From Candidatus Hydrogenedentota bacterium (lineage in GTDB: Bacteria > Hydrogenedentota > Hydrogenedentia > Hydrogenedentales > Hydrogenedentaceae), in assembly GCA_026415215.1 (NCBI GenBank), contig JAOAHN010000122.1, positions 11,954 to 75,953 of the forward strand: a stretch of DNA of 64,000 nucleotides, read 5' to 3'. Positions 5,582 through 61,118 of this stretch are shown piece by piece. Under the pieces are notes generated by a model, which saw only the letters and a program-made list of their open reading frames with translations, did not search any database and was not told the DNA's origin. The position numbers were made by a program, and so were the translations under genes. The number at the start of each line of letters is the position of its first letter. The first letter of the stretch is position 1.

Positions 5582-6583
5582 TTAAGAGTCCTTTACTTTT
5601 GAAAGTTTGATAGCGAGGTCGATTGCTGAGACTAAACTTTTCTCTGATGCTACCCCTTTGCCTGCTATATCAAAAGCTGTGCCATGGTCTACGGATGTGC
5701 GGATGATTGGTAGTCCAAGTGTTATATTCACCCCTTCATCCATAGCTACTAACTTTAGTGGAATATGTCCTTGGTCGTGGTACATTGCCACTACTGCATT
5801 AAACTCACTTAGCCAGAGCCTCCGAAACACTGTGTCGGGAGGGTAAGGGCCTGAACAGGGTATACCTTTTGCTCTGCATACCTTTACAGCAGGTTCTATT
5901 ATCTCTATTTCTTCTTTCCCAAATAACCCATTTTCTCCTGCGTGAGGATTTAAACCTGCGACCGCTATCCTTAATTCTGAATGATAAATTTTTTTTAGTT
6001 GCTCATAACATATCTCTATCGTTCTAATTAGTGGTTCTAACCTGATTTTAGATATAGCTTCAAGTATCGATAAGTGTCCCGTATGGTGAACAATCCATTT
6101 CTCTTTGGTGTATAAAGTCATACGGTAATCTTTAGTTCCCGTTAAGTGCGCAATCATAGTGGTATGACCGTCGTAGGGGATGTTTGCTTTTGCTAACCCA
6201 TCTTTGGTTATCGGAGCGGTTACTATAGCATCGACTCGTTTTTCTAATGCCCATGCTACTGCTTGTCTTATCCACTCAGTAGATGCTATGCTGTTCTCGG
6301 GATAGATGTGGCCTGGGTCAAATGGAAGTGTCTCATAACCTAATTCTGTTATTCCAAGAGACAATTGGTCAGAAATAAGTTCCTCAGGAGAGAGGATATC
6401 TTCTGGTATGACTGACGAATTTAACAACTTTGCATAGTAGGTGTAAGCTTTTAAATTCCCAACAACTATGAATCGAGCCTTTTTGTATATATGTTGGTCG
6501 GTTAATGCCTTAACTATAATTTCTGGGCCGATTCCATTTATGTCGCCCATAGTTATAGCTATGATAGGTAGAGTGTCCATCAT
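5582..6583 (-). CDS. pdxA: 4-hydroxythreonine-4-phosphate dehydrogenase
   Basis: PdxA motifs 'AITMGDINGIGPEI', 'AGLNPHAGENG', 'HGTAFDIAGKG'. Length 333 aa. Confidence 0.85.
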   Translation of the reverse strand: MMDTLPIIAITMGDINGIGPEIIVKALTDQHIYKKARFIVVGNLKAYTYYAKLLNSSVIPEDILSPEELISDQLSLGITELGYETLPFDPGHIYPENSIASTEWIRQAVAWALEKRVDAIVTAPITKDGLAKANIPYDGHTTMIAHLTGTKDYRMTLYTKEKWIVHHTGHLSILEAISKIRLEPLIRTIEICYEQLKKIYHSELRIAVAGLNPHAGENGLFGKEEIEIIEPAVKVCRAKGIPCSGPYPPDTVFRRLWLSEFNAVVAMYHDQGHIPLKLVAMDEGVNITLGLPIIRTSVDHGTAFDIAGKGVASEKSLVSAIDLAIKLSKVKDS

Positions 6584-6620
6584 TTAAGCCCTTCGAAATA
6601 GATACTATATGGTTATTATA

Positions 6621-6672
6621 TTATAGAAAAACCAGACTAAATGGGTTGTTGAGATAACCACATTTAGTCTGG
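6621..6672 (-). terminator. Rho-independent terminator downstream of the DUF1559 gene
   Basis: Perfect 12-bp stem CCAGACTAAATG / CATTTAGTCTGG (6632-6643 / 6661-6672) with a structured loop. On the minus strand it is followed by TTTTTCTATAA. Confidence 0.7.
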
Positions 6673-6702
6673 CGTAATTTTTATAATCTCTCAATAATTC
6701 TT

Positions 6703-7695
6703 TTATGTAAGGGCAGAAACGAGAACACCTATTACTACTGCTACTGCTTGGGTGACAGGAGGAGTTCCCCCAACTGGTTGATATCTTATAAATTCAACAT
6801 GTCCGTCCATGTACAGTACATTTGACCCACCAGGTATATGATTGTAATCTGAAGCACTTACTGCTACTTTATCAAAAATAATCGGCAGAGTGCTCTGGGC
6901 TTTTGCGCTTGCGGAAGGATTATTAATGTCAGTTATGAGGAACCTTTCTATTCCTTCTCTCAATCTATATACTGTATTTGTTCCAGCGTTTCCATAACCT
7001 TGAAGTGTGCTACTGGATATGTCGGAATCTACTATTCTAAATATAGTAGAATGGTCTTTGTTGTTAACTGCAGTTACTAATTCGGGAGTAGCAAGAGCAA
7101 GCAATCCGTAAACAAGTTGGGCGGGTGCGTTAGTTGGTGTATTGGGAGGCAGAGTTATAGGTCCTGCACCTAAAGAGTTTAGGACATTTACCATAGGAGT
7201 TACATCAACCATTGGCCATTCATCTCCTATGCGGTCCATAACAAGGCCCAGATAAATGTAGCTTGAGTCCATAGCAGAGGCACAGGAGAAAGTATCGTTT
7301 GTGTAATAGTTTATGCACCATTCATCTCTGTCAGGGTATTTCGCTCTTGATATTGATTGCCGATAATCTGCATCGGAGGGACAAAAGGCTATCATTGGAT
7401 CGTTAAGATACTCGGGGTAAATCAAAAATGTACTTGGACATAGGTCCGCTCTTACCTCAATACTGCCTTGAATTGTAGGATAGGCTCCAAATTGGACCGG
7501 AGGAAATTTTTCGCCTTTTGCTTCGTTACTATACATTTTTAGCACTAATCCCCATTGCTTTAGATTGTTTTGACAGCTCGACCTGCGTGCTGCCTCTCTT
7601 GCCCTTGCCAGTGCAGGTAATAAAATCGCTGCAAGGATGCCGATAATAGCAATAACCACAAGTAACTCTATCAGAGTAAATCCTACTTTTTTCAT
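6703..7695 (-). CDS. Prepilin-type N-terminal cleavage/methylation domain protein, DUF1559 (H-X9-DG) family
   Basis: Start re-set to ATG at 7695 ('[38 protein letters not shown]'), which has a GGAGA Shine-Dalgarno 7 nt upstream. The track ORF begins 25 codons earlier. The C-terminus '[17 protein letters not shown]' matches the H-X9-DG motif. This family is typical of Planctomycetes, Verrucomicrobia and Lentisphaerae. Confidence 0.8.
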
Positions 7696-7817
7696 AAATA
7701 GTCTCCTATCTTGGAATTTAGTAACGCCATTTGATATTCTCTTAAGATATATGACCATGCTTCTGTACAAACAGTTTCATTTCTAACAATTTCGTGATAA
7801 ACAGTTGGAGGTCAACT

Positions 7818-8222
7818 ATGAAAAAGTTGCTATGTTATGTGATACTCTTTGTCGTGGTATCTTTCTTTCAGGGATGTTTTTGGCCCTCTACTCAAGAAGG
7901 GAAACTAACACTTTTATCGGATAAAATTGGCTTGTCTGTAGAAGGACCTCATGGATTCTATGGTACTATAACTAAGGAGAGTATAACCGATTCGGACTGG
8001 GATTTCTCAGGAGAGTTCACATTTCCTAACTCGCTCTACTTTTATCTCGGCTTTACTCATAAAGTAGAAGAGAGCTACCCAGAAAATATAGTTATTGAGT
8101 TGTATGTTAAGAGGTCACTTTTAGGTGAGCTAATAGCTCCAAGTGAGAAGAAAGTAAGAATCGAGAAGAAAATTAATGCTTCCAATGAGGCAAAATTCCG
8201 AGTAGTATTTAATACTTTTTAG
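7818..8222 (+). CDS. Hypothetical lipoprotein
   Basis: Start re-set to ATG 7818 ('MKKLLCYVILFVVVSFFQGCFWP'), with a GGAGG Shine-Dalgarno 8 nt upstream. Signal peptide with a lipobox-like 'FQGC'. No recognisable domain. Confidence 0.45.
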   Translation: MKKLLCYVILFVVVSFFQGCFWPSTQEGKLTLLSDKIGLSVEGPHGFYGTITKESITDSDWDFSGEFTFPNSLYFYLGFTHKVEESYPENIVIELYVKRSLLGELIAPSEKKVRIEKKINASNEAKFRVVFNTF

Positions 8223-12279: not shown

Positions 12280-12422
12280 AAATTTTGGTATAGTTCAGAA
12301 AAACTTTACATTTTTTATAAAACATCCCCCTCTTTTACGAGAGTTTTAGAAGGGTTCTTACAAGACATTGAATAGAATTGATAAAATTATACCATTATCA
12401 ATATAAAAAGTTTCATCAATCT

Positions 12423-13511
12423 ATGTATCTTAAAAATTTGTTCATGAAATTTTTTAGGTGTTTCTCCGAATTAAATATGGAGTTTTCTTCGGGGACGAAC
12501 CTCATATTGGGAAGTAATGCACAAGGAAAGACATCTCTTTTAGAGGCGATATACTTTTTAGCCTTGGCAAGGAGTCCAAGAACTAATGTCGAAAAAGAAA
12601 TGGTTCAGTATGGGTGTGGGGGATTTCTACTAAAGGGTTGGGTTGAATATAGTAGATCAGATAGCTTCCCGACAAGGACGAAAACAATTGAGATAAGATG
12701 GGGGAAAGGTAAGAAAAAGATAATTATAGATGGAATAGAAGCAGAAAGAGTTAGTGAGTTGTTGGGAAATCTGCGAGTTGTGTTTTTGTCAAATGACCAT
12801 TTTAACTTAGTGACTGGAGGAGGTAGTGTAAAAAGGAGATTCTTGGATATACAGATTTCTCAGTGGGATAGGGAATATCTTCATGCACTGCAAGAGTATA
12901 ATGTAGCATTGCGTCAGAGAAACGAATTATTGAGAAGAAGCTATGTGACCGATGAGGAGTTGTATCCTTGGGAGGTGGCTATGGATAAGTTTTCAAAGAT
13001 TATTGTGGAAGCAAGAAGGAAATTCCTCTCAAAGATAGCTCCATTTGCAGTTATGTTACATAATGCAATAACCAGAGATGAAAATTTAGAAATTAGATAT
13101 GTGCCGAGTATAGAAGGTGATAGTTTATTGAAAGTTTTACAGGTGAATAGAAAGTCTGACGCGGAGTATGGTGCTACGCAAAGAGGACCCCACAGGGATG
13201 ACATAGAAATTAAGATTAATAGGTATCCAGTGAGGCAGTACGCTTCGAGAGGACAAATAAGAACATGCTCCTTTGCGTTAATAATTGCTCAGGTTTATGC
13301 TATGTTGGAAGAACATAATGAACCACCTGTTCTACTCGCAGATGAATTGTTATCTGAGTTGGACTCCGAACGGAGCAAAAAAATGGTTGAAAGCATTCCA
13401 AAAGGTATTCAGAGTTTTATAACCTCTGCTGATACATCATTGAATGAGACTTTGGGTTTAAATGCAAGTTTATATTTTATAAGGAAAGGTAAAATTGAAA
13501 AAGCAGGATAG
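12423..13511 (+). CDS. recF: DNA replication and repair protein RecF
   Basis: Start re-set to ATG 12423 ('MYLKNLFMKFFRCF...'). Walker A 'GSNAQGKTSLLEAIYFLA'. ABC/SMC-like signature and a Walker B/D-loop near the C-terminus ('LLADELLSELD'). Confidence 0.85.
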   Translation: MYLKNLFMKFFRCFSELNMEFSSGTNLILGSNAQGKTSLLEAIYFLALARSPRTNVEKEMVQYGCGGFLLKGWVEYSRSDSFPTRTKTIEIRWGKGKKKIIIDGIEAERVSELLGNLRVVFLSNDHFNLVTGGGSVKRRFLDIQISQWDREYLHALQEYNVALRQRNELLRRSYVTDEELYPWEVAMDKFSKIIVEARRKFLSKIAPFAVMLHNAITRDENLEIRYVPSIEGDSLLKVLQVNRKSDAEYGATQRGPHRDDIEIKINRYPVRQYASRGQIRTCSFALIIAQVYAMLEEHNEPPVLLADELLSELDSERSKKMVESIPKGIQSFITSADTSLNETLGLNASLYFIRKGKIEKAG

Positions 13512-13812
13512 AAGGAAAAAACAAATTGAAAATATTTCTGAAATTATGGAAGATCTCCCAAAATCTGATGTTTTAAAGGTAGGATTTGAACTTCTACCAA
13601 TACTTGAGCACTGGAAAGAAATAATGGGTGAAGAGTATTATTTGGACACTTCGTTCTCGGGATATAGGAAAGGAATTTTGTATGTAAAAGTTCATAATAA
13701 CACAACTCTTGATAGATTAATATATGAGAAAGATAGGATAATGAATAAGATAAGAGAAGTAATAAAGACAGAGCTGATTAAAGATGTATTCTTTGAGTTA
13801 GGAGATGAATAA
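13495..13812 (+). CDS. DUF721 domain protein (the usual recF-adjacent small protein)
   Basis: 105 aa. Overlaps the recF stop, which is the conserved position of DUF721/YaaA-like proteins after recF. Assigned by context plus size and weak motif memory. Confidence 0.5.
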   Translation: MKKQDRRKKQIENISEIMEDLPKSDVLKVGFELLPILEHWKEIMGEEYYLDTSFSGYRKGILYVKVHNNTTLDRLIYEKDRIMNKIREVIKTELIKDVFFELGDE

Positions 13813-13931
13813 AGTTAGATGGGTATACATACAAGATTATGGGAGGATAGAAATTTTGATTAAAAGTGAAGGGTTTTACACTTTAACGGATTAATTTTAG
13901 TGACAAAATTATAACTTCTAAAAAGGGTTTA

Positions 13932-16439
13932 TTAATCATTTGACTCTATGTCTTCAGAAAGATCGATTAATTCTGAATCCTTCTCACTTTCTATGCTCTC
14001 TGTCTCTGCTTCTTCTTTCTTAATTGCTTTATCGGCAGATGCAACCTTCGCTCCTTCTCTTAATTGCATAAGTAAGACCCCTTTTGTATTTCTGCCCACA
14101 GTTCGTATTGATTTAACAGGTACTCTTATCATCTTCCCATCTGTAGCAACGAGGACTATATCCTCATCATCACTCACGGTGAGCATAGCAACTACATTAC
14201 CGTTTCTTTCCGCAGTTTGGATATTAATAATACCCTTACCCCCTCTATGTTGTATCCTGTATTCTTTTACTTCAGTTCTTTTACCGTAGCCATTTTCAGT
14301 GACAGTAAGAACGGTTAGATTGTCCTTTGCAATTGAAACTCCTACCACATAGTCATCTGAATCTAATCTAATTCCAACTACTCCCTGGGCGGTTCTTCCC
14401 ATAGGTCTAACATCTTTTTCAGGGAATCTTATAGCAAGTCCTTTGTAAGTAGCTAACAGAACATTATCATTTCCAGAAGTTACGAGGACATCCATTAACT
14501 CGTCCCCCTCTTCTAATGATATGGCTAAAATTCCAGTTGAGCGTGGTCTACTGAATGCACTCAAGGGGGTCTTTTTTACATAACCCTTTTTAGTGACCAT
14601 AAAGAGGTATTTATTAGGATCGTTCAAGTTCTTTATTGATAAGAAAGCGGTAACTTTTTCTGAATCCTCTAACTCTAATAGATTTTTAATATTTCTACCT
14701 CTTGCCATTCTTCCTGCTTCCGGTATTGCGTGGACTTTTCGCCAGTAGACTCTACCTTTATTTGTGAAAAATAGTAAGTATTCGTGAGCGGTAGCTGTGA
14801 ATACATGTTTAACGAAATCATCCTCAGTGGTATCCATTCCTATTACACCTTGTCCTCGTCTTCTTTGCTTGCGAGAAGAAGACTGGGGCATTCTTTTAAT
14901 ATATCCTTGATTAGACACAGTAATAATTACTGCTTCATCGGCGATGAGATCTTCAATATCAAAATCTTCTATAGTATCAAGGATTTCAGTTCTTCTTTCG
15001 TCACCGTATTTTTCTTTTATGCTCACTATCTCTTTTCTTACTTCTGCAAGAATAGTTTCTTTGCTCGATAATATATGCTTAAGTCTCTTTATTTCCTCAA
15101 GGAGTTTGTTATATTCTTCCAAAAGTTCCTTCCGCTCTAATCCGGTAAGTCTCCTTAATGGCATTGCAAGTATGGCTTTTGCCTGTTCATCTGTAATTTT
15201 TAACTTTTTACAAAGTTTTTGTTGAGCTTCTTCTGCATTTGTTGACTTGCGAATAAGGTCTATTACCTCATCAATTTGGTCTATGGCCTTTAGTAGTCCC
15301 TCAAGTATATGTGCTCTATGTTCTGCTTGTCTAAGGTCATAGCGTGTTCTCTTTTCTACTACTTCAGCTCGGTATTGAACATAGTGTTGGATCATATCCT
15401 TGAGGTTAAGGACGCGGGGAATGTTATTCACGAGAGCGAGAAAGTGGATTCTTGAAGTAGTCTGAAGTTGAGTATGTTGGTATAGTTGGTTTAATACTAT
15501 TTGAGGATTTGCGTCATTTCTTAGTTCAATGATTAATCGCATTCCTTCTTTGTCAGATTCATCTCTCAGATCTGTGATACCTTGTACTTTTCCATGCTCA
15601 ACTGCTTTTGCTATTGATTCAATTACACTTTGCTTTGTTATTTGATAAGGAATTTCTTGTACTACAAGACTTTTCTTTCTTCCTTTTTCTTGAGATATTA
15701 TCTTTACTTTGGCTCTTAACTTTATTTGTCCTGTCCCTGTGAGATAAGCCTTTCTAATACCTTCTTTCCCGCAAATAATCGCACCTGTTGGAAAGTCTGG
15801 TCCGGGAACAATGTTAAGATAGTCTTCTACTGGAGCATTAGGGTTATCAATGTAATACACGATTGCATCACATATTTCTGTGAGATTGTGAGGGGGGCAG
15901 TCTGTTGCCATTCCCACTGCGATGCCGTAAGAACCATTTACAAGTAAGTTCGGAAAACCTGATGGAAGAACTACAGGTTCCTCAAGCCGAGCGTCAAAGT
16001 TAGGACGCATCTCTACGGTTTCTTTTTCTATGTCCGCAAGCATCTCAAGAGCGATTGGTGTAAGTTTCGCTTCGGTATATCTGTATGCTGCGGGACTGTC
16101 GCCATCAATTGAACCAAAGTTACCTTGTCCCTCTACCAATGGATATCTCATGTTCCAGTCTTGGGCGAGACGGACAAGCGCATCGTATACTGCTTGGTCA
16201 CCATGAGGGTGATACTTACCTAAGCACTCCCCGACAATAGTGGCACATTTCCTGAAAGGTTTATTAGGAGTAAGTCCTAACTGTTGCATCACATATAATA
16301 TTCTTCTCTGGACAGGTTTAAGTCCATCTCGGATATCTGGTAAGGCTCTACTAACTATTACGCTCATAGAGTAGTCAAGAAATGCAGATTGCATTTCTTG
16401 TTCGATGGGAATTGGCTTAAGATTTCCATTTACTGACAT
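13932..16439 (-). CDS. gyrA: DNA gyrase subunit A
   Basis: '[27 protein letters not shown]', 'AAMRYTEAKL'-type motifs and a C-terminal beta-pinwheel. Length 835 aa. Confidence 0.95.
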
Positions 16440-16470
16440 TAATTTTCTCCTGGCGTTTTAGGAAAGTTGT

Positions 16471-18909
<2,439 letters not shown>

Positions 18910-19093: not shown

Positions 19094-19170
19094 ATGGTGG
19101 GCGATACAGGACTCGAACCTGTGACCCCTTGCATGTCAAGCAAGTACTCTAACCACCTGAGCTAATCGCC
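19094..19170 (-). tRNA. tRNA-Val (anticodon GAC), CCA encoded
   Basis: The reverse complement folds as a cloverleaf. Acceptor GGGCGAT/ATCGCCC, D-arm GCTC..GAGT, anticodon stem CTTGC/GCAAG with loop TTGACAT, T-arm ACAGG-TTCGAGT-CCTGT, discriminator A, 3' CCA. Confidence 0.85.
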
Positions 19171-19208
19171 CACCTTCAAATTAATTATAGCAGTTATTTT
19201 TTATAATG

Positions 19209-51631: not shown

Positions 51632-53323
51632 TTAGAGAGACTTTATCCTATTCATTTTTTCTATTATATGTTTAACTTTTTTGCCCATAGCAGAAGAGCG
51701 TTCATATCCCCCTTTATAAATATTTAATGTTTGTTTGCACAGTTCTAATGGATTGTTGCCTTCTAAATTATCTCTTTCAAATTTAGTCACATTAGTGAGA
51801 GGTTTGAGATAAGGATTGATTTCGCTAAATATTCTTATCTGCTCATCTATCTCAGTTAGTAGCTTTACTTGTTCTTTTGCTTTTGAGATATTTTTATTGG
51901 CGAGGCTATGTCTGATCTGTTCGGTAATGTATATACCTTGTTTGTATTTTTTCGCTAATTCTTCAAATATAGCCGAGAACTCTTTGCTCCAATCTTTTGT
52001 AATAGTATCCTGTGGGATTTTATAGTATTTCAAGGTTTCTAAGGTACCTAAATTCTCGTTTTTACTTATGATAGAAGTCCCAAAACTCTCTATCCACATT
52101 TCTCTATAAGCTAACCTTAGAAAATCTTTTTCTGTGATCTCCCTTCTGATCAGTGGTAAGAATTGAAGGCACCCATCCGAAGCAAACTCGGAAATATGCA
52201 CATTGATATTCTCCATCGTGAGAGAGTTTTCTTGTTGTGTTATAAGTTCCTGGGAGCGATAATGGATTAACCATTCAAACGCTTGAAACACTTGCTCCGG
52301 GGATATTTTGTCAGCAAAAGTGTCTTCGGTGTGTCTCGAGGATATATCCATTTTGAAACTTCTCTCTCTAAGTTCTACCGCGATATTTTTTCTACCGTAA
52401 GGTCCTGTTTCTCTAAAGTGCACATAACCTACGGATACGAGTAAAACAGGACATCTCACCGCTACCGCAAGATGCATGGTTCCAGTGTCGTTGGTTATTA
52501 ATGCAGAAGAATGTTTCAATAATCCTGCTAATTGATCGAGATTTGTTTTTCCAAACAGTGGTATTGCTAAGCCCGGTACTTCTTTTTGAAACCTGTTTCC
52601 TAATTCTGCTTCAGATGTGACTCCGACAAGAAAAAAACGAGCTTTGTGTTTTTCGTGGATCAATTTGGCTAATTTTGCGAAAAACTCAGGAGGCCATCTT
52701 TTAACCGGTTCACTCGCACCTAACTGCAAACATATAACCATTTCCTCTGAAGATATAGAATATCTATTGAATAATTCTCTTGCATATTCCTCACCTTCTT
52801 TTTTAACTTCATATATTAGACTGTCCACGGAATCGTTGACCGGTTCGTAAAGTTTAAAAATGTCGCACAGGTTCAAGTCATTATAATCTCTTGATAGAAC
52901 ACTCGTAAAAAAGTATACAGTCCACGCTCCTTTTAGATTGAATACCCAATCAGAAGAGATATTTGCCCCCACTACATCTTCTATCTCTGCCAACTTGAGT
53001 AATAGTGCCGAAGATGTACTATGGGTTACATTGTACGCTTTGTTAAATTTTCTACTTTGGAGTTCAGTAATAAATTTTTCGGTAGTTTGGTACGCATTAA
53101 GTAGTCGGTCTGAGTCATTAGATAGTAAGTCTGAAAATATAGGATCCTCATTGTAGATTATGTAGTCATTTATATCAGGGTTCGCTTTTGCTACCGGCTC
53201 ACTCATTGACCTTATCATCAGAGTAATATGGGCATGGGGGAATTTTTTACGGATATTACTAAGCAAAGGAGTGGTTTGGAGAGTATCACCTATTCTCGCA
53301 GTCTGAAGAACTAATATATTCAT
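51632..53323 (-). CDS. GT9 (heptosyltransferase-like) glycosyltransferase with a ~220-aa C-terminal extension
   Basis: N-terminal 'MNILVLQTARIGDTLQTTPLL' and 'GASEPVKRWP', 'NDTGTMHLAVA' motifs of ADP-heptose:LPS heptosyltransferases. The C-terminal region is unknown. Confidence 0.65.
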   Translation of the reverse strand: MNILVLQTARIGDTLQTTPLLSNIRKKFPHAHITLMIRSMSEPVAKANPDINDYIIYNEDPIFSDLLSNDSDRLLNAYQTTEKFITELQSRKFNKAYNVTHSTSSALLLKLAEIEDVVGANISSDWVFNLKGAWTVYFFTSVLSRDYNDLNLCDIFKLYEPVNDSVDSLIYEVKKEGEEYARELFNRYSISSEEMVICLQLGASEPVKRWPPEFFAKLAKLIHEKHKARFFLVGVTSEAELGNRFQKEVPGLAIPLFGKTNLDQLAGLLKHSSALITNDTGTMHLAVAVRCPVLLVSVGYVHFRETGPYGRKNIAVELRERSFKMDISSRHTEDTFADKISPEQVFQAFEWLIHYRSQELITQQENSLTMENINVHISEFASDGCLQFLPLIRREITEKDFLRLAYREMWIESFGTSIISKNENLGTLETLKYYKIPQDTITKDWSKEFSAIFEELAKKYKQGIYITEQIRHSLANKNISKAKEQVKLLTEIDEQIRIFSEINPYLKPLTNVTKFERDNLEGNNPLELCKQTLNIYKGGYERSSAMGKKVKHIIEKMNRIKSL

Positions 53324-53325
53324 TG

Positions 53326-55113
53326 CTATCTTTTCTCCTTTAGGAGCTGTTCTCCGAATACTCTTATCTCATTCATCAGCCAGAATATTTTTTCAGGAAA
53401 GGCAGATTCTGGGCCCAGTGTATTTAGGTAGGTATTAATATGATGTTGAGTAAAGGGTATATCCTGGGGTAGAGAAATTAGCCACTGTCCAAGTATAGAA
53501 TCTTTTCCTACTATATCAATGATTTCACCAATTGTTCTCCTAATCCGAATACCCTTTCTAATTATTTTCCCGCCAAAATTCTCAATTAAAAACTCCAACA
53601 TTTCTTGTGCTCGATTTTGATAAGTGTGTTCTTTTAATGCTCGCATCCTCGCATTCTTGGCTATTTGTTTTCTCTCGTCCTCATGTTCAAGGTAATAATT
53701 AATTTTTTCTCTCAAGGATTTTAGGTCTGTATATGTTGGTATTTCTTCATGAATGTCAAACAATCTCTCTAATCCTTTACACGGGTCACATAGTTGAAAT
53801 CCACCGGCCGATGCAATTTCAAATACCCGTGGGTTTATAGCGTCTGCTTCCGGGTCGATTCCTTCATGGATTACACTCGAGTGAATGTTTAAGTTAATCT
53901 TAGAGCCCGCAACTATTTTCATATACTCTTCTGTGTCGAAGCCTTTTTCACCTTCTACAACATGGGGCAATAAATCTTGGTCATACCAATTAACTCCCCA
54001 TATCTTCAAATTGTAATCAGTCAATCCTTTGAGAATCTGAATTCTGTTGTAATATCCAGCGCCGGCAAAAGATAAGTCACATTTATATTTTTTTTCTTCC
54101 TCCGGAGTGAGTTTTATAGGCTTATGTAAGTCTGGATCACAGCCTGTAAGCACAGCTTTGTGATATTTACAGCCTATTGAGTCAAGTTTCTCGTCAAAAT
54201 CACCGGGTTGTATGTGGAAAAACACATCATAGAAAGGTGCTATGTCCCTCCAGTAACTCATATGTCTCCAATTTTCGACAAACCAAAAGGCAGTGATTAT
54301 ATTCTTTTCCCTCAATTTGCTCACTGTGATTATATTCAAAGGAGCTTGAGCAAGTGCTATACATATCTCGGGCTGGAATTCTATTATTTGAGCATAACAC
54401 CATTCTGAAAGAAATCGAGTAAGGAATTCTTCAAGATAATTGACGATCTTTCCACTTTTAATTTTTTCTTTGACAGAGTTGTAGAGAGACCATCCGCATT
54501 CGGGATCTATAAGAAACGCATTATGACCTAATTTTTTCAAGGCGAGCGTTAGATATTTTGCTATAGGCAGAGATCCCCCATACATAGGACCTATTACTGC
54601 AATGTTTAATCTGTTTTTCTGGAAAATGTAGGTAGATATATCTCTCAAAAATGAGTTGTAAAACTCAAGATTTAGTTTTAGTGCTATTGGATGAAGGAAA
54701 GGTTGGGGAATTTTGTTTATAAACTTGAGGAAAGTCTCGTCGTTTAGCAGTTCATTAGTATTTCTTGATATAGCAAGTAACAGATTATCTGGAAGCTCCA
54801 CAGTATTAATACATGTAGTTACTATCTCAGGATTTGTTTCTATTACTAATAGTTCAAATCCTCTTCTCAAAAGTTCTTTGATGTGGTAGCCTAATCCAAG
54901 CCCTCCTACTATAACTGGCCTTCTTATGTCCAACTCAGCTGAATCTATTATTCTTTTAGCTTCTTCAAACGGATCATACTGACTATGATAAAGAAGTCCA
55001 TTTACTCTTATCGTTTTTATACCTTCTTTTTTTTCTAAGATCTCTATTTTCGCTGGTGTAGGATTATCTTTTAACTCGAATCTCCATTCTTTGATTGTTT
55101 TTACGACGCCCAT
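53326..55113 (-). CDS. CgeB-family (DUF3880 / Glyco_trans_1_2-like) glycosyltransferase
   Basis: C-terminal 'EIASAGGFQLCDPCKGLERLFDIHEEIPTYTDLKSLREKINYYLEHEDERKQIAKNARMRALKEHTYQNRAQEM' matches the CgeB/Glyco_trans_1_2 pattern. Its start codon abuts the stop of the upstream fusion gene. Confidence 0.55.
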   Translation of the reverse strand: MGVVKTIKEWRFELKDNPTPAKIEILEKKEGIKTIRVNGLLYHSQYDPFEEAKRIIDSAELDIRRPVIVGGLGLGYHIKELLRRGFELLVIETNPEIVTTCINTVELPDNLLLAISRNTNELLNDETFLKFINKIPQPFLHPIALKLNLEFYNSFLRDISTYIFQKNRLNIAVIGPMYGGSLPIAKYLTLALKKLGHNAFLIDPECGWSLYNSVKEKIKSGKIVNYLEEFLTRFLSEWCYAQIIEFQPEICIALAQAPLNIITVSKLREKNIITAFWFVENWRHMSYWRDIAPFYDVFFHIQPGDFDEKLDSIGCKYHKAVLTGCDPDLHKPIKLTPEEEKKYKCDLSFAGAGYYNRIQILKGLTDYNLKIWGVNWYDQDLLPHVVEGEKGFDTEEYMKIVAGSKINLNIHSSVIHEGIDPEADAINPRVFEIASAGGFQLCDPCKGLERLFDIHEEIPTYTDLKSLREKINYYLEHEDERKQIAKNARMRALKEHTYQNRAQEMLEFLIENFGGKIIRKGIRIRRTIGEIIDIVGKDSILGQWLISLPQDIPFTQHHINTYLNTLGPESAFPEKIFWLMNEIRVFGEQLLKEKR

Positions 55114-58100
55114 TCATTTATCCTTTTCTAAAGTATCTAACTCTTTCTCAATTTCTTCTGTTTTTCCAAAAAGTTCGACAAACTCCTTTAAAAGATTTAT
55201 TGCTTCACTTTTATTGTTCTGCCTGACTAAATATCTTGAATACTCTATAATAAGCCTTACATTGGAAGGGTAGAACTTACTAAATCTATCTAAGGTTTCT
55301 TTAGCTATCTCATTTTTCCCTAATGACTCACACACAGACACAAACAAAGGAAGTATCTCTATGTATTCGTATGAATTTGAATAGACGGAATAGAAATACT
55401 CAAAGGACTTCTCTAAATTATTGACTTGTAAATAGGCTTGGGCTATGGCTAATTTTAATTTCAGATCTTTAGGAATTTGCTTTTCTGCCTCGTGTAGATG
55501 CTTTAAAGCTATAAAGCCCTGGCCCATTGCGACAAGTAGAATACCGTACTCAAGCAAAATTTTTGGATTTTCTTTGTTGCTTTTGAGAAGCTCAGTATAT
55601 ATTTCCTGGGCTCTTACTAAGTTTCCTGTGTGAGCGTAGAACTTTGCCTCGAGTGTTTTCTTTTTCCAATCTGGTATTTCCAACTTTACCTCACTGAGTT
55701 CTAATAGATACTCAAACTTTTTTTCGGTTATTAACATACTCACGAACTCGTCGAAAATTTTTTCTGCTGTTGGTATTTTTTGTGCTACTGCTACATATTG
55801 ATATGCCCTTATGTCTTCATAATCTCTTTCACTAACTCCTAAGATTGTTAATTTCCCTAACCTAATAGAGCCATCCGCATTTTTTGGAACATAACTCTCT
55901 GGTGTAATGTTGATAGGACTTACTAAGATGGGTAAGTAACCAGCTCTTTTAAGAAGACTTCTTATCCCTGTTTTGCTGAGCAGACTAATGTGAGTAATGT
56001 CTAATATTCCACTATCTTGGTATCTCCACTCACCATTAGAAAGCTCTGCAATAACACCCCAGTATCTAATGTTAGGGATACTGATAAGTACATATCCGTA
56101 ATTAGCAAGGTATTTGTGTATCTTTTTAAGGATATCAAATGGGCTGATAAGATGTTCTAAAACATCACAAAAACAGATGAGGTCAAAAAACCCATCCTCG
56201 AAAGGCAAATCTATTTCCTCAATGTTCCCGCATATTACTTTATCTAAGTTTTTTTCAGCAATCTTTGCTATGGACTCTTCTGTTTCAACTCCTGCAACAA
56301 AACTAACTTTGAGAATGTCTTTTAGAGCTTTTCCGAAAAGCCCAACTCCACAACCGATATCTAACACATTTTTCACACTTTGGGGGATATAAGGTAGGAG
56401 ATCCCACCTTTGAGAGGAATAGTAGACTATTGGTTTTCTCGAAAGTTTATTTACTCGAGGCCGATTAAGGTTAAAGTTTTCCTCAATTGTTTTTACTATC
56501 TGTTCGACTCTGTGATGATATGTATGATATTTTAATACTTTTTCCTTACCTTGCTGTGCTATTTTTTCCCTCTCGTCCTCATTTTCTAAGTAGTATTTTA
56601 TCTTATCCAATAACTCATCTTGGCTATGATATACCACAATTTCCTTGCCGTCTTCAAACAGTTCGTTTATGCTATCTGCAGGATCTGTAACAAGTAGAGC
56701 TCCAGATGCAAGGGCTTCAAAAACTCTCATATTTAGGTCATAGTTGATGGCTGAGTTTACTACAATTTTGCTTCGAGAGTATATTCTTGCCATTTCTCTA
56801 GGCCAACTTTTTCCTATGAAGTGATTGGGAAATTTATCTGCAACCTTTTTAAGAATTTTTATCCTTTTGTCTCCCTCTTCGTGAGATAAACTCCCTACAT
56901 AGGCTACATCAATGTCTCTTGGAAGTTTCTCCTTAGGGTATAGTTCAGGATAGCAAGCAAGGGGTAGCCAGTATACATATCTAATCCCCTCCAACTTGAA
57001 CAACTCCACATGGCTTTTTTGTGCTAAAAAAACTATGTCAAAGTGGCGAGCCATTTCAAGTCTCGTCTTAAAGTCTAAATGAGTGTCTATAAAATACGCT
57101 ATTTTGAGTATGTTCATTGCATCCAGTTCTGGGTCTATTGTTTTTAATCCTGAGTCCACATAGAGGTAGAACTCAAAATTATATCCGTTTGGAAGTTTTT
57201 CAAGTGTATGCTTTATCCTGTTTTCATCCAATGTAGTTGGTATTCTCGGCGGAGGATAGGGGGGATAAGGGGATAAGAATCCCCATCTCTCAAGTAGCTC
57301 TTCGGGGCATCTAAAGCCGATACTTACAACATCATGTTTTTCTTGTAAAGCATATTCTAAGTATCTTCCAGTTGTATAGGGAGAGGATACATAGTCTAAG
57401 AGGATGCGATATCTTTTAGGATAATTTGGAGGTTTGCTTATTTGAACAGAGTTAGTTTCTAAACCTGAATGGGTAAGTATAATCTTTTGCCATTTATCCA
57501 CAAATTCGCCAATAGGAAAGGTATTTTTTACCGTTTCTCTACCTCTTTCTCCAATCTCTCGAGCTACTTTTTCGTCTTCTAATAGCAATTCTAAATACTC
57601 TCTTAATTCTGCTGGATCAAATGAAGAAAATCCGTCAACCCCATTTGTTATAGGAGAGGTATAGTTTTTTAATGCTACCACAGGCATCCCACAAGCCATG
57701 GCTTCTAACATTGCTAAGTTATAACCATCCTCAAATTCTTGTCGTGTCACATGAAGGTAACACCTATTTTTCCGGTAGGCATTTAGGAGTTCCTCGAAGC
57801 TTGTAGAGACAGTGGAATTTGGAATTTGAGGATTTTCTCCAATGACTTGGTTTGGCAATCCCGCACATACTGCTTCTTGAAAAGGTACATCAAACATCCA
57901 GTTTCTCTCGTACATATAGTTGCCTACTCGCAATATCTTGGGAATCTCACCTGTGTATCCTCCATATTCATCTACATCTATTCCAGGAGGTACTACATAT
58001 CCTTGAAGATTATAGTCATCTTGTTTAGAATATGAGATAAATACTAAAGCAAAGGCTTTTGCAAGAACCTCAACATTTTTTTCGAAGAGTTCGACGATAT

Positions 58101-58437
58101 TTGGGTCAGATTTTGGAAGAATTGTTTTAAGGAAGGTTTTCCTATTATGACACACAAGCAATTTCGGGCAAGTGTATTCTTTTAGATCCCAAGCATTTAG
58201 CTCATTGTGGGCAATTAGTATATCGTAGTACCCATTTTTTAGTCTGTCACGCCATTCTTCTTCCGGAATCTCAATCAGGTTTTCAGGTTTAGGTCTAAAT
58301 TGGGTTTTCCATGTTCGTGAGAGTATACCTTCTTTATATAATCCCAGCTCCATCTCAAAACCTGTTTTTGCGAGAAGACACATGTAGGGCTCATGAAAGT
58401 TGAATGTGAGGATTCTAATCTTTTTGGGGTAACCCAT
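55114..58437 (-). CDS. Four-module fusion: GT4-like glycosyltransferase + CgeB-like domain + class I SAM methyltransferase + C-terminal TPR repeats (1107 aa)
   Basis: GT4 'EDGYNLAMLEAMACGMPVV' (aa ~240-260). CgeB-like 'FEALASGALLVTDPADSINELFEDGKEIVVYHSQDELLDKIKYYLENEDEREKIAQQGKEKVLKYHTYHHR'. SAM motif I 'VLDIGCGVGLFGKAL' with 'DLICFCDVLEHL'. Helical TPR-like repeats fill the last ~270 aa. Confidence 0.6.
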   Translation of the reverse strand: MGYPKKIRILTFNFHEPYMCLLAKTGFEMELGLYKEGILSRTWKTQFRPKPENLIEIPEEEWRDRLKNGYYDILIAHNELNAWDLKEYTCPKLLVCHNRKTFLKTILPKSDPNIVELFEKNVEVLAKAFALVFISYSKQDDYNLQGYVVPPGIDVDEYGGYTGEIPKILRVGNYMYERNWMFDVPFQEAVCAGLPNQVIGENPQIPNSTVSTSFEELLNAYRKNRCYLHVTRQEFEDGYNLAMLEAMACGMPVVALKNYTSPITNGVDGFSSFDPAELREYLELLLEDEKVAREIGERGRETVKNTFPIGEFVDKWQKIILTHSGLETNSVQISKPPNYPKRYRILLDYVSSPYTTGRYLEYALQEKHDVVSIGFRCPEELLERWGFLSPYPPYPPPRIPTTLDENRIKHTLEKLPNGYNFEFYLYVDSGLKTIDPELDAMNILKIAYFIDTHLDFKTRLEMARHFDIVFLAQKSHVELFKLEGIRYVYWLPLACYPELYPKEKLPRDIDVAYVGSLSHEEGDKRIKILKKVADKFPNHFIGKSWPREMARIYSRSKIVVNSAINYDLNMRVFEALASGALLVTDPADSINELFEDGKEIVVYHSQDELLDKIKYYLENEDEREKIAQQGKEKVLKYHTYHHRVEQIVKTIEENFNLNRPRVNKLSRKPIVYYSSQRWDLLPYIPQSVKNVLDIGCGVGLFGKALKDILKVSFVAGVETEESIAKIAEKNLDKVICGNIEEIDLPFEDGFFDLICFCDVLEHLISPFDILKKIHKYLANYGYVLISIPNIRYWGVIAELSNGEWRYQDSGILDITHISLLSKTGIRSLLKRAGYLPILVSPINITPESYVPKNADGSIRLGKLTILGVSERDYEDIRAYQYVAVAQKIPTAEKIFDEFVSMLITEKKFEYLLELSEVKLEIPDWKKKTLEAKFYAHTGNLVRAQEIYTELLKSNKENPKILLEYGILLVAMGQGFIALKHLHEAEKQIPKDLKLKLAIAQAYLQVNNLEKSFEYFYSVYSNSYEYIEILPLFVSVCESLGKNEIAKETLDRFSKFYPSNVRLIIEYSRYLVRQNNKSEAINLLKEFVELFGKTEEIEKELDTLEKDK

Positions 58438-58449
58438 TTTCGTAACTGG

Positions 58450-59088
58450 CTAATTGCTATCGATGACTTCGATATTTTCAACTAATTTTTTTAATAGATT
58501 AAGTATTTCTATTTCCTTTTCAGCTCTCGGAGCTAATTCGTATTGTAGTATATCCGAAAGAGATATTATATCTTCTCTGTCTAAGGCTTTATAAGCTTCG
58601 TTAAGGTACTGATTCAATTCATTGTGATGTTCTATTATATCGCTTATTATTGGATTTTCCCCCTCCACATACTTTGATATTGTGTTTACAATTAATGCTT
58701 CCCGATTTTTTATTTCACCCCAGATCTCTGTTAATTTTTGAAATGGACCGAGTGCGTCGGCTGGATTCTCGCTCTGAAATAGTTCCGCAATCCCATAACA
58801 TAGGTTACTTAATTCGGGGGTATATTTTTCTAATTCAACTATACTTTCGCGAAGTAATTGCAAGGTCGGTACTGCAGTTACCTCAATTATGTGTATATTA
58901 GAAATATCCATATTTTGAACGGCGCTCAAGGACTTTCCAGGTGGTACTTCTTGTTCATTTACTCTAAGCTTTATTAGACCAAGGTCTTTGCTGGATAAAT
59001 ATTCGAGAAGGGTTTCTAAAACATTCATAAGATTCCTTGCTCCTTCAGGAACTGGAAATTCTTCTTTCTCATTAATAATAACTCTCAT
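58450..59088 (-). CDS. Hypothetical protein (212 aa) immediately downstream of csrA
   Basis: No recognisable domain; predicted largely helical and acidic. It occupies the position where flagellin (hag/fliC) normally follows fliW-csrA. Confidence 0.4.
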   Translation of the reverse strand: MRVIINEKEEFPVPEGARNLMNVLETLLEYLSSKDLGLIKLRVNEQEVPPGKSLSAVQNMDISNIHIIEVTAVPTLQLLRESIVELEKYTPELSNLCYGIAELFQSENPADALGPFQKLTEIWGEIKNREALIVNTISKYVEGENPIISDIIEHHNELNQYLNEAYKALDREDIISLSDILQYELAPRAEKEIEILNLLKKLVENIEVIDSN

Positions 59089-59101
59089 TTTCGCGTATTC
59101 C

Positions 59102-59332
59102 CTATTTTCTATCGTTAATCTTTGGAATATATATATCTCCCCCTCCTGGGTTTTGAGATGCTTGTCTATTTTCCTCTTTGATTAGTAAGTATACTTCTAA
59201 TCTGTGAACTGGAACTGAGCGGGGGGCGTTAATTCCTATCTTTACTTGGTTTTCTTTAATTTCCAGTATTTTTACCTCGATATCATCCCCAATCATTATA
59301 CTCTCATTTTCTCTACGGGATAGCACTAACAT
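59102..59332 (-). CDS. csrA: Carbon storage regulator CsrA
   Basis: Start re-set to ATG 59332 ('[48 protein letters not shown]'). Canonical CsrA fold motifs ('LVLSR', 'GINAPR...V.R.E'). The ATG sits 2 nt after the fliW stop. Confidence 0.9.
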
Positions 59333-59333
59333 A

Positions 59334-59789
59334 TTAGACCTCCTGTCTTTCATTAGAAGAGTTATTAGGGTGCGATAGGAACCATTGCACAGGATACTCC
59401 GTTTTGTCTAATATCATTTGCTTTGCTAAATTCTTCTTCTTATTTATCACAATGGGAGCCCTTAGATTTGTTCTTATTTGTTTAGGATCTTCGGGAACTA
59501 CTAAAAGGGTGTACACAGTAATGTCTTCAGTTTTATCTGCCTCCAATTCCGATAAATCTTGAGTAGTAAATGGCACATTATATGTTGGAATTATATAATA
59601 AGGATCCACCATTAGAAAGGCAAGTTTACCGTCCTCAACCGATTGCAACCAGAATATTGGACAATCGGATCCAGCAGGCAAAATTATGAATTTCTTATAG
59701 GCTTGAAATCCGAGGATAGGTTTTACAAAAACTATTATTTCGCTTTTCTTAACCTCAATGTCTCCAAATCTCGTGGTAGCTATTTTCAT
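59334..59789 (-). CDS. fliW: Flagellar assembly factor FliW
   Basis: '[21 protein letters not shown]...KFIILP...[21 protein letters not shown]...[12 protein letters not shown]' aligns with FliW (DUF180). Confidence 0.85.
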
Positions 59790-59869: not shown

Positions 59870-59884
59870 TTGATAGATTATCAA
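59870..59884. promoter_or_regulatory. Perfect palindrome TTGATA-GAT-TATCAA upstream of the fliW operon
   Basis: 15-bp dyad about 80-95 nt upstream of the fliW start, in the promoter region between tRNA-Leu and fliW. Confidence 0.3.
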
Positions 59885-59937
59885 AAATTTTAGGGAGGAT
59901 AACAAACTGGAAATGGCATAAGAAGGGAGCTTCAATG

Positions 59938-60021
59938 TGCCCGGGAGGAGACTTGAACTCCTACCCCATTGCTGGGACCAGATCCTTAGTCTGGCGCGTC
60001 TGCCACTTCCGCCACCCGGGC
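59938..60021 (-). tRNA. tRNA-Leu (type II, long variable arm), anticodon read as AAG, no encoded CCA
   Basis: Reverse complement GCCCGGGTGGCGGAAGTGGCAGACGCGCCAGACTAAGGATCTGGTCCCAGCAATGGGGTAGGAGTTCAAGTCTCCTCCCGGGCA. Acceptor GCCCGGG/CCCGGGC, D-arm GCG..CGC, anticodon stem CCAGA/TCTGG with loop CTAAGGA, variable stem CCCA/TGGG, T-arm AGGAG-TTCAAGT-CTCCT. Confidence 0.8.
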
Positions 60022-60054: not shown

Positions 60055-60090
60055 TATATAAAAATCAACTCGATTAATCGAGATTTTTAT
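60055..60090 (-). terminator. Rho-independent terminator of the zinc-ribbon mini-gene
   Basis: 14-bp perfect palindrome CTCGATTAATCGAG (60069-60082), followed on the minus strand by TTGATTTTTATAT. It is flanked by A and T runs, so it could act in both directions. Confidence 0.5.
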
Positions 60091-60341
60091 AACATTGGCT
60101 CATGTCTACCTTTTCCAGGTCCATTTGGGTGGCGGAGACAAAAATTTGCAGACATTGAAGATATTGAGGAGAATTTTTTCCCACAATATTTACAAATATA
60201 TGTAGTTTTTTCTTCTCCCTCGTAAGGGAGATGTCTCCCTTTTCCGAAACCTAAAGGATGTCGAGGACACAGCGAAGATGTAAGTGAAACTACATCATTA
60301 GCCTGTCTTCCACAATATTTGCATACATATTTAGGTGACAT
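60087..60341 (-). CDS. Small protein (84 aa) with two tandem Cys2-Cys-His zinc-ribbon-like repeats
   Basis: Repeat 1 'YVCKYCGRQANDVVSLTSSLCPRHPLGFGKGRHLP'. Repeat 2 'YICKYCGKKFSSISSMSANFCLRHPNGPGKGRHEP'. Each has CxxC-N14-CxxH-P-x-G-x-GKGRH. Confidence 0.5.
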   Translation of the reverse strand: MSPKYVCKYCGRQANDVVSLTSSLCPRHPLGFGKGRHLPYEGEEKTTYICKYCGKKFSSISSMSANFCLRHPNGPGKGRHEPML

Positions 60342-60383: not shown

Positions 60384-61118
60384 TTATATTTCTATCTTTG
60401 CTCCTAATTCTTTAGCAACGAGTATACTTGAGCGGAGTAGTGCGTCAAAACTTCCACAATCTGCCCACCACCCTTCTAAAAACTCGTAAGTCATAGTACC
60501 GCGTCTTATATATTCATTGTTTACATCAGTTATCTCCAATTCTCCTCTTGCACTCGGCTTCAATCTCTTGCATATTTCAAATACATCTGAGTCGTACATA
60601 TATATACCTATTACTGCATAGTTAGTGGGAGGATTCTTGGGCTTTTCAATTATCTCTTTTACTTTTCCCCCTTCTATGACTGCCACTCCAAACTCCTGAG
60701 GGTTCGAGACCTCTTTCAAAAATATTTTTGCTCCCTCCGACTGCTTTTCAAATTCTTCTAACGCTTTCTTTATACTACCCTGAATGAAATTATCTCCAAG
60801 TATTACGACTACCTTATCCTTTCCTACAAACGGTTCTGTAAGTGACAATGCATGGGCGATTCCCCCCTCTGTTTTTTGATATGTATAATGAAGCTGGTTA
60901 AGTCCAAAATCTTCTCCGTTTCCTAAGAGTCTAAGAAAATCTCCTGCATTATTACCTCCAGTTACAATCATTATGTCTTTTACACCTGCATCTACAAGGG
61001 TTTGTATTGGATAAAAAATCATGGGTTTGTTATATACAGGAAGGAGATGCTTATTTGTAACGCGAGTGAGGGGAAGTAACCTTGTTCCTAATCCTCCAGC
61101 TAATACTACACCTTTCAT
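60384..61118 (-). CDS. Sugar-1-phosphate nucleotidyltransferase, RmlA-like (glucose-1-phosphate thymidylyltransferase, short form)
   Basis: The N-terminus 'MKGVVLAGGLGTRLLPLTRVTNKHLLPVYNKPMIFYPIQTL' closely matches the RmlA signature (GGxGTRL...K.LLPVYDKPMIYYP). At 244 aa it is shorter than canonical RmlA. Confidence 0.65.
   Translation of the reverse strand: MKGVVLAGGLGTRLLPLTRVTNKHLLPVYNKPMIFYPIQTLVDAGVKDIMIVTGGNNAGDFLRLLGNGEDFGLNQLHYTYQKTEGGIAHALSLTEPFVGKDKVVVILGDNFIQGSIKKALEEFEKQSEGAKIFLKEVSNPQEFGVAVIEGGKVKEIIEKPKNPPTNYAVIGIYMYDSDVFEICKRLKPSARGELEITDVNNEYIRRGTMTYEFLEGWWADCGSFDALLRSSILVAKELGAKIEI

Follow-up and report, generated by a model that had tools for sequence, protein, structure and literature searches.

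In Bacillus subtilis, the flagellin gene hag lies directly after csrA. What, then, does a FliW-CsrA module serve when the genes that follow it encode glycosyltransferases? The question is raised by a stretch of 64,000 nucleotides (nt) from a Candidatus Hydrogenedentota bacterium (assembly GCA_026415215.1, contig JAOAHN010000122.1, positions 11,954 to 75,953 of the forward strand; hereafter the window), in which fliW and csrA head a block of six genes that continues with a gene of the DUF8042/TP0873_N family and three genes for glycosyltransferases (GTs). The answer that we favor, to which we assign a probability of roughly 0.62, is that the block is an operon for glycosylating and methylating flagellin, coupled to a FliW-CsrA module, with the flagellin itself encoded elsewhere. 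Flagellin glycosylation islands and the FliW-CsrA-flagellin switch have been well studied separately; joined as they appear to be here, in an almost uncultured phylum, they would make it possible to ask, in a natural setting, if the modification of flagellin is tied to its homeostasis.

A tightly packed block of six genes

All six open reading frames (ORFs) lie on the minus strand, in the region 51632-59789 (Table 1), and the initial annotation, which had described them as tight and co-directional, was right about both the ORFs and their short spacers: read from the sequence in gene order with fliW first, the spacers measure 1, 13, 12, 0 and 2 nt. The csrA start had been placed at 59353 and is corrected here to the ATG at 59332 (MLVLSRR...), which has AGGAGG in front of it. 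At none of the block's gene junctions did a consensus scan detect a terminator-like site, and the six genes very likely form one transcript.

The domain calls of the initial annotation also stood up, as Pfam supports the FliW, CsrA, GT, methyltransferase, TPR and GT9 assignments and, with them, the claim that the cargo downstream of csrA consists of glycosylation and methylation enzymes. FliW scores 123 bits against Pfam PF02623 (cut-off 25) and is matched by the NCBIfam FliW models, at best with 1e-41, yet it stays under their equivalog cut-offs; CsrA is over its NCBIfam equivalog cut-offs (96.8 versus 73 bits).

Table 1. Features of the six-gene block and of its upstream border, in window positions (aa, amino acids)
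Feature	Position	Strand	Basis	Remark
fliW	59334..59789	-	Pfam PF02623, 6e-36	151 aa; flagellar assembly factor and CsrA antagonist
csrA	59102..59332	-	Pfam PF02599, 1.6e-25	76 aa
DUF8042/TP0873_N-family gene	58450..59088	-	precomputed PF27299 and PF26154	212 aa; third gene
GT/GT/methyltransferase/TPR fusion	55114..58437	-	Pfam	1107 aa
Glycosyltransferase, CgeB-like	53326..55113	-	Pfam	595 aa
GT9, heptosyltransferase-like	51632..53323	-	Pfam PF01075, 3.5e-23	563 aa
Promoter-like site TTGTTA-N17-GATAAT	59877..59905	-	consensus scan	local variant of TTGC-N18/19-GCATACT
tRNA-Leu(aag)	59937..60021	-	ARAGORN	upstream operon border in the window's clade; outside the system
Terminator-like hairpin	60069-60082		consensus scan	between tRNA-Leu and the 84-aa ORF
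84-aa zinc-ribbon ORF	60087-60341	-		between the RmlA-like gene and tRNA-Leu
RmlA-like gene	60384-61118			beyond the 84-aa ORF; not contiguous with fliW

Conservation across Hydrogenedentota

Is this arrangement peculiar to one genome? Scanning one genome from each GTDB species with a profile from 23 sequences gave 76 loci, about 60 of them from Hydrogenedentota; the compared loci carry labels (L001 and so on), and the window proteins were searched against all their ORFs by BLAST. Among the Hydrogenedentota loci with enough sequence, fliW-csrA stands directly before the DUF8042 gene in 59 of 59, the fusion comes next in 47 of 48, a gene of the 595-aa type follows the fusion in 41 of 45, and the GT9 gene follows that in 36 of 41. 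The order is kept in about 60 species-level genomes at identities down to 28%, the median identities to the window being 46% for FliW, 71% for CsrA, 32% for the DUF8042 protein, 43% for the fusion, 47% for the 595-aa protein and 43% for GT9. The flanks, on the other hand, vary by lineage (dnaE, dprA, ftsZ/murC or nitroreductase genes), and because the order is constant while the flanks change we conclude that selection acts on the block itself. Next to the cluster one repeatedly finds sugar-nucleotide genes, RmlA-like in the window's clade and DegT or RmlD-like in other lineages.

The block also has a promoter-like motif of its own. In 50 of 60 loci the 110 nt upstream of fliW include GCATACT, some 48 nt ahead of the start codon, and the longer form, TTGC-N18/19-GCATACT, has 47 copies in 998 kb over both strands (loci L002, L008 and L012-L067), all of them directly upstream of fliW. 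Its geometry fits a promoter of the sigma-70 family, and conservation this strict suggests that the motif, which differs from the classical sigma-28 consensus, may be read by a sigma factor or regulator dedicated to it. The motif is a possible tool for defining the late flagellar regulon of Hydrogenedentota. The site in the window, TTGTTA-N17-GATAAT, is the variant of the window's AT-rich clade and is kept in L001 and L006, just downstream of tRNA-Leu.

A further example of the cluster is L083, which has a DegT gene downstream and, at 6325-7980, some 2 kb upstream of fliW and on the other strand, a gene for a protein combining PMT_2 (dolichyl-phosphate-mannose protein mannosyltransferase-like) with TPR. 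Between the fusion and 595-aa-type genes of L040 there is a two-gene cassette (an AAA_21/AAA_15 ATPase and DUF4276; 14018-15942) that looks like a mobile or defense-type insertion. Records from binchicken co-assemblies titled 'uncultured Nitrospirales/Nitrospiraceae bacterium' (L007, L014-L016, L023, L026, L027, L031, L034, L043, L051, L064, L065 and L069) also have the cluster in its Hydrogenedentota form, gene order and motif included; their names probably differ from the real phylum.

The DUF8042 protein

The gene between the regulatory pair and the enzymes encodes a protein with an N-terminal alpha/beta domain and a C-terminal four-helix bundle, to which precomputed Pfam assignments, made for the identical protein and for relatives, give PF27299 (TP0873_N) and PF26154 (DUF8042). 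The DUF8042 family comprised 1182 cluster representatives at E<=1e-3 in a profile search. In Firmicutes (L070, L072 and L078) a DUF8042 homolog is found in a late flagellar operon of the form flgK-flgL-(fliW-csrA)-flagellin-flaG-fliD-(fliS), where it lies immediately upstream of Maf and nonulosonic-acid (Pse/Leg-type sugar) genes, and at a spirochete locus (L081) the homolog comes after fliD. The likeness to TP0873 of Treponema pallidum lies in the two shared Pfam families and in this spirochete position; the position directly after csrA, however, was found only in Hydrogenedentota. Our literature search on TP0873 found nothing. For this family, which has over 1000 sequence clusters but no known role, the locus offers a concrete lead to function. 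The idea that the protein is a flagellin mimic was rejected, as a profile-profile comparison with flagellin gave a probability of 0.2%.

Distant members of the family, in Omnitrophota and unclassified metagenome-assembled genomes (MAGs), have recurrent non-flagellar neighbors that hint at other roles of the wider DUF8042 family. A protein of about 610-630 aa, which is not flagellar, precedes the distant homolog at L071, L079 and L080; a multiheme cytochrome/cytochrome b fusion is near it at L068, and a GntR/UTRA regulator at L076 and L082.

The three enzymes

In the 1107-aa fusion, Pfam recognizes two GT-B regions of Glyco_trans_1_2/GT4 type, the first at residues 1-320, approximately, and the second, made up of DUF3880 and a CgeB-like part, at about 448-648, as well as a methyltransferase dependent on S-adenosylmethionine (SAM) at 680-834, and TPR repeats at about 930-1100. 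The methyltransferase domain matches PDB 3cc8 (5e-34) and, weakly, WbdD-type methyltransferases. In relatives the fusion proves to be modular, with methyltransferase and TPR only at L047, with one GT plus methyltransferase and TPR at L028, and with the same truncated BLAST pattern at L062. In the window its gene lacks a separate Shine-Dalgarno sequence, and in relatives the gene often overlaps the stop codon of the DUF8042 gene.

The 595-aa protein opens with a Maf-type N-terminal domain at about residues 15-160, after which come DUF3880 (276-354) and a Glyco_trans_1_2/CgeB-like domain (361-507). Residues 40-112 match a Firmicutes Maf protein in phmmer (E 3.5e-9), and a hidden Markov model from 44 orthologous N-termini matched four Firmicutes Maf proteins with E values of 1e-11 to 7e-19; the Pfam match to Maf_flag10_N is sub-threshold (0.0053). 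Pfam gives no match to the catalytic MAF_flag10/MptE-like domain PF01973 in this protein, a domain that is present in the Firmicutes Maf proteins of L070 and L072 (1e-30 to 1e-48). As it lacks that domain, the 595-aa protein is not a Maf, and this identification was ruled out.

The last enzyme, of 563 aa, has a Glyco_transf_9 domain over residues 83-321, with PDB matches 3tov and 1psw, and a C-terminal extension of about 210 aa without a Pfam match. Its best NCBIfam model is heptosyltransferase II, at 96.9 bits against a cut-off of 134.6.

Is flagellin the substrate?

Several independent links, drawn from sequence comparisons, point to flagellin as the probable substrate of these enzymes. Besides the flagellar neighborhoods of the DUF8042 homologs, the Maf-type domain, the FlmG-like pairing of TPR with GT-B and the recurrent sugar-nucleotide genes, there is FliW itself: its nearest counterparts outside the phylum, with 42-44% identity, belong to flagellin-csrA-fliW or flgK-flgL-fliW-csrA loci, and because this is no worse than the 38-79% seen within the phylum, we do not regard it as unusually divergent. 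The flagellar locus of Desulfotomaculum copahuensis holds a DUF3880-Glyco_trans_1_2-methyltransferase protein related to the fusion. A flagellin survey lists 'Candidatus Hydrogenedentes' among the flagellin-bearing phyla (PMC7018530), and the Hydrogenedentota genome SB-MAG71 (GTDB family and genus WGMK01) is reported with fliG/H/J/K/N/O/P/Q/R/S/W and also with flgC/D/E/G/K/L, flhA/B/F/G and motAB (PMC10866078 Table S1). L052 is a contig of WGMK01, the genus's namesake assembly, and has the full six-gene cluster.

A fliC in an Abyssubacteria supplement was not used as evidence, both because Abyssubacteria presumably fall outside Hydrogenedentota in the GTDB sense and because re-classification has moved deposited Hydrogenedentes MAGs. 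That re-classification, with GTDB-Tk, assigned several such MAGs to other candidate phyla (PMC10866078). A protein-database search for Hydrogenedentota flagellins gave Firmicutes sequences for all of its best 120 hits, and flagellin is presumed in this lineage from the literature only.

A number of observations weigh against flagellin as the target. Pfam searches found no flagellin or other flagellar gene among the ORFs of the 64-kb window (at least 100 aa, or at least 60 aa near the cluster), and a search with flagellin, FlgK/L/M/N, FliD/S, FlaG and MotA/B as its only seeds turned up no flagellar gene up to 10 kb away from the cluster at about 60 Hydrogenedentota loci; in these loci, as in the window, the GT genes adjoin fliW-csrA only and not flagellin. 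The sigma-28 consensus (TAAA-N15-GCCGATAA) occurs upstream of fliW in 0 of 61 loci. The published gene list of SB-MAG71, a MAG that is 72% complete, does not name fliC (PMC10866078), and the Maf N-terminal domain is described as being of unknown function (PMC11339370). The closest sequences of GT9 are lipopolysaccharide (LPS) heptosyltransferases. Distant DUF8042 homologs (22-25% identity; Omnitrophota and others) stand in non-flagellar contexts, and the family must therefore be broader than its flagellar subgroup. Finally, L020 and L063 keep fliW-csrA-DUF8042 without GT genes, and because such lineages exist the DUF8042 protein seems bound more tightly to FliW and CsrA than to the enzymes; L016, L024 and L026 keep the same three genes and the fusion without the other GT genes.

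What else could the block be? Several of these observations would suit a repurposed module, in which FliW, CsrA and the DUF8042 protein would govern a surface glycan outside the flagellum (as LPS core or O-chain, or on an S-layer or other glycoprotein) and not, or not only, flagellin, so that the FliW-CsrA switch would extend beyond flagellin. In its favor are the failure to find a flagellar gene nearby or a sigma-28 consensus, housekeeping flanks such as dnaE, ftsZ/murC and dprA, a GT9 that resembles LPS heptosyltransferase II and a methyltransferase with a weak likeness to the O-antigen terminator WbdD. It is opposed by a FliW that shows no extra divergence relative to the FliWs of canonical flagellar loci, by the Maf N-terminal domain and the DUF8042 neighborhoods, which point to flagellin, and by the genus-level relative reported with a set of flagellar genes, fliW and fliS among them. 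Moreover, the established partners of FliW are flagellin and CsrA, and we know of none beyond these. We consider repurposing improbable, and disfavored relative to a role in flagellin modification. If, in contrast, the cluster were an ordinary polysaccharide cluster that chanced to sit downstream of fliW-csrA, without functional coupling, then it would be no surprise that GT4, GT9 and methyltransferase genes, which are common in glycan clusters, are found in it, or that a few lineages (L020 and L063) have no GT genes after the DUF8042 gene. However, an order kept in about 60 species at protein identities down to 28-45% while the flanks change, with spacers of 0-13 nt or overlaps, is not expected without selection for co-expression, and mere proximity is therefore very unlikely.

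A different question is whether CsrA acts on the block's own polycistronic mRNA, binding at the ribosome-binding sites of the DUF8042 and GT genes besides or instead of flagellin mRNA, with the consequence that the glycosylation enzymes would be made only once flagellin export frees FliW. The genes do come directly after csrA, the position of hag in B. subtilis, and a purine-rich GGA/GGG motif lies 8-12 nt before the DUF8042 start codon in most relatives. Translation of the fusion gene could depend on that of the DUF8042 gene, as no separate Shine-Dalgarno sequence precedes it in the window and the two genes often overlap at the DUF8042 stop codon. There is also a parallel in Helicobacter pylori, where a Maf-like flagellin GT is reported under CsrA/RpoN control in a passage of PMC7988653 that cites PMC5368276. 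Nevertheless, the GGA motif is indistinguishable from an ordinary Shine-Dalgarno sequence, and the junctions hold Shine-Dalgarno-like motifs only, with no conserved second GGA site or hairpin; in the 5' regions where the initial annotation had envisaged GGA-containing CsrA sites, only ordinary Shine-Dalgarno sequences were found. Translational gating of this kind is possible but, in our judgment, unlikely. It is likewise doubtful, to much the degree that repurposing is, that FliW, CsrA and the DUF8042 protein form a Hydrogenedentota-specific three-component switch, with CsrA gating translation of the enzymes and the DUF8042 protein perhaps a partner of FliW or CsrA, or that they are a module turned to a non-flagellar surface glycan. 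Were either to hold, this would be the first FliW-CsrA system with glycosylation machinery as its direct output.

A proposed mechanism for a flagellin modification operon

How might an operon for flagellin modification work if flagellin is encoded elsewhere? The block would be transcribed as one unit behind the conserved promoter-like site, and FliW and CsrA would perform their usual partner switch on the distant flagellin mRNA, CsrA blocking flagellin translation and FliW freeing CsrA upon flagellin export. The co-transcribed enzymes would modify new flagellin in the cytoplasm, prior to its export. The TPR module, which may be compared with that of FlmG, and the Maf-type N-terminal domain are of kinds that have so far been seen in flagellin glycosyltransferases. 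A multi-sugar O-glycan may be built by the four GT-B domains, and the fused SAM methyltransferase would methylate one of its sugars, much as is reported for the Clostridioides difficile type B flagellin GT2. For the DUF8042 protein the most likely role is that of an adaptor or chaperone, by which flagellin, or the homeostasis module, would be coupled to the enzymes. A shared operon would keep the enzyme supply in step with late flagellar expression, and CsrA may have a further point of action at the ribosome-binding site, with its GGA motif, of the DUF8042 gene.

Relation to known systems

With the FliW-CsrA-Hag system of B. subtilis the locus shares adjacent fliW and csrA genes and a long CsrA (76 aa) that begins with the RNA-binding motif MLVLSRR; it also keeps CsrA Asn55, which we take to be important for FliW binding. 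It differs in that the gene after csrA is not flagellin. The statement in the initial annotation that flagellin is normally encoded right after csrA was too broad, being true of some Firmicutes only: in C. difficile fliS1-fliS2-fliD-CD0238 intervene, and relatives have the orders flgK-flgL-fliW-csrA and flagellin-csrA-fliW.

The nearest parallel in gene content is C. difficile, in which the order fliW-csrA-fliS1-fliS2-fliD-CD0238-fliC is followed by GT genes, and in which the type B GT2 adds and methylates rhamnose (PMC10889297). The late flagellar F1 region and the F2 flagellin glycosylation operon of C. difficile resemble our locus in having fliW-csrA near flagellin GTs, GT and sugar methyltransferase activity, and a gene for nucleoside diphosphate-linked sugar nearby (PMC10889297). 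However, fliS, fliD and fliC lie there between csrA and the GTs, within a large flagellar regulon region, whereas the Hydrogenedentota locus has no flagellin, fliS or fliD, its GTs come one DUF8042 gene after csrA, and the block stands alone among housekeeping genes.

Two further comparisons concern the enzymes. FlmG, a flagellin O-glycosyltransferase of Caulobacter crescentus, binds flagellins by its TPR domain (PMC7591256) and, in a likeness of architecture to the fusion, combines TPR repeats with GT-B catalytic domains. In the fusion, by contrast, the TPR is C-terminal and is joined to two GT domains and a methyltransferase; furthermore, FlmG transfers pseudaminic acid, and no Pse genes were seen at the Hydrogenedentota cluster. 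The 595-aa protein shares with Maf the N-terminal Rossmann-like domain, and in Firmicutes DUF8042 genes lie directly upstream of maf, but in place of the MAF_flag10/MptE-like domain (PF01973) it has DUF3880 and a CgeB-like GT-B domain. A literature search for 'CgeB' together with 'flagellin glycosylation' found nothing.

How new, then, is the arrangement? The initial annotation had held that neither a glycosylation system under CsrA/FliW control nor a repurposed module had been described. This goes too far, since the C. difficile and H. pylori cases are precedents through which a connection of flagellin glycosylation to the late flagellar module is already known in kind. What does stand as new is the phylum-wide, flagellin-free operon: a direct operon fusion without flagellin, fliS or fliD, apart from other flagellar genes, which is conserved across a whole candidate phylum with a constant DUF8042 gene and a private promoter-like motif.

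Operon borders and neighboring genes

Upstream of fliW, the tRNA-Leu gene is conserved in L001 and L006. It is absent from the Rfam list at the gathering threshold, in which the only entry is a tRNA-Val (19098-19171). The 84-aa protein encoded beyond it, which is conserved in L009 and L010, is made up of a zinc ribbon in two nearly identical copies (Y-x-C-K-Y-C-G ... C-P/L-R-H-P-x-G-x-G-K-G-R-H). The RmlA-like gene had been described as lying just upstream of the block, but because the zinc-ribbon ORF, the hairpin, tRNA-Leu and the promoter-like site intervene we regard it as a neighbor outside the unit and not as a member; it is kept in close relatives only. At the other end, no terminator was found between the GT9 and nitroreductase genes, and the latter is not counted in the system because it, too, is kept only in close relatives. 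Farther away, neither dnaA nor dnaN was seen in the window, in which recF-like, dciA, gyrA and gyrB genes are clustered at 12378-18906, a grouping typical of replication-origin neighborhoods.

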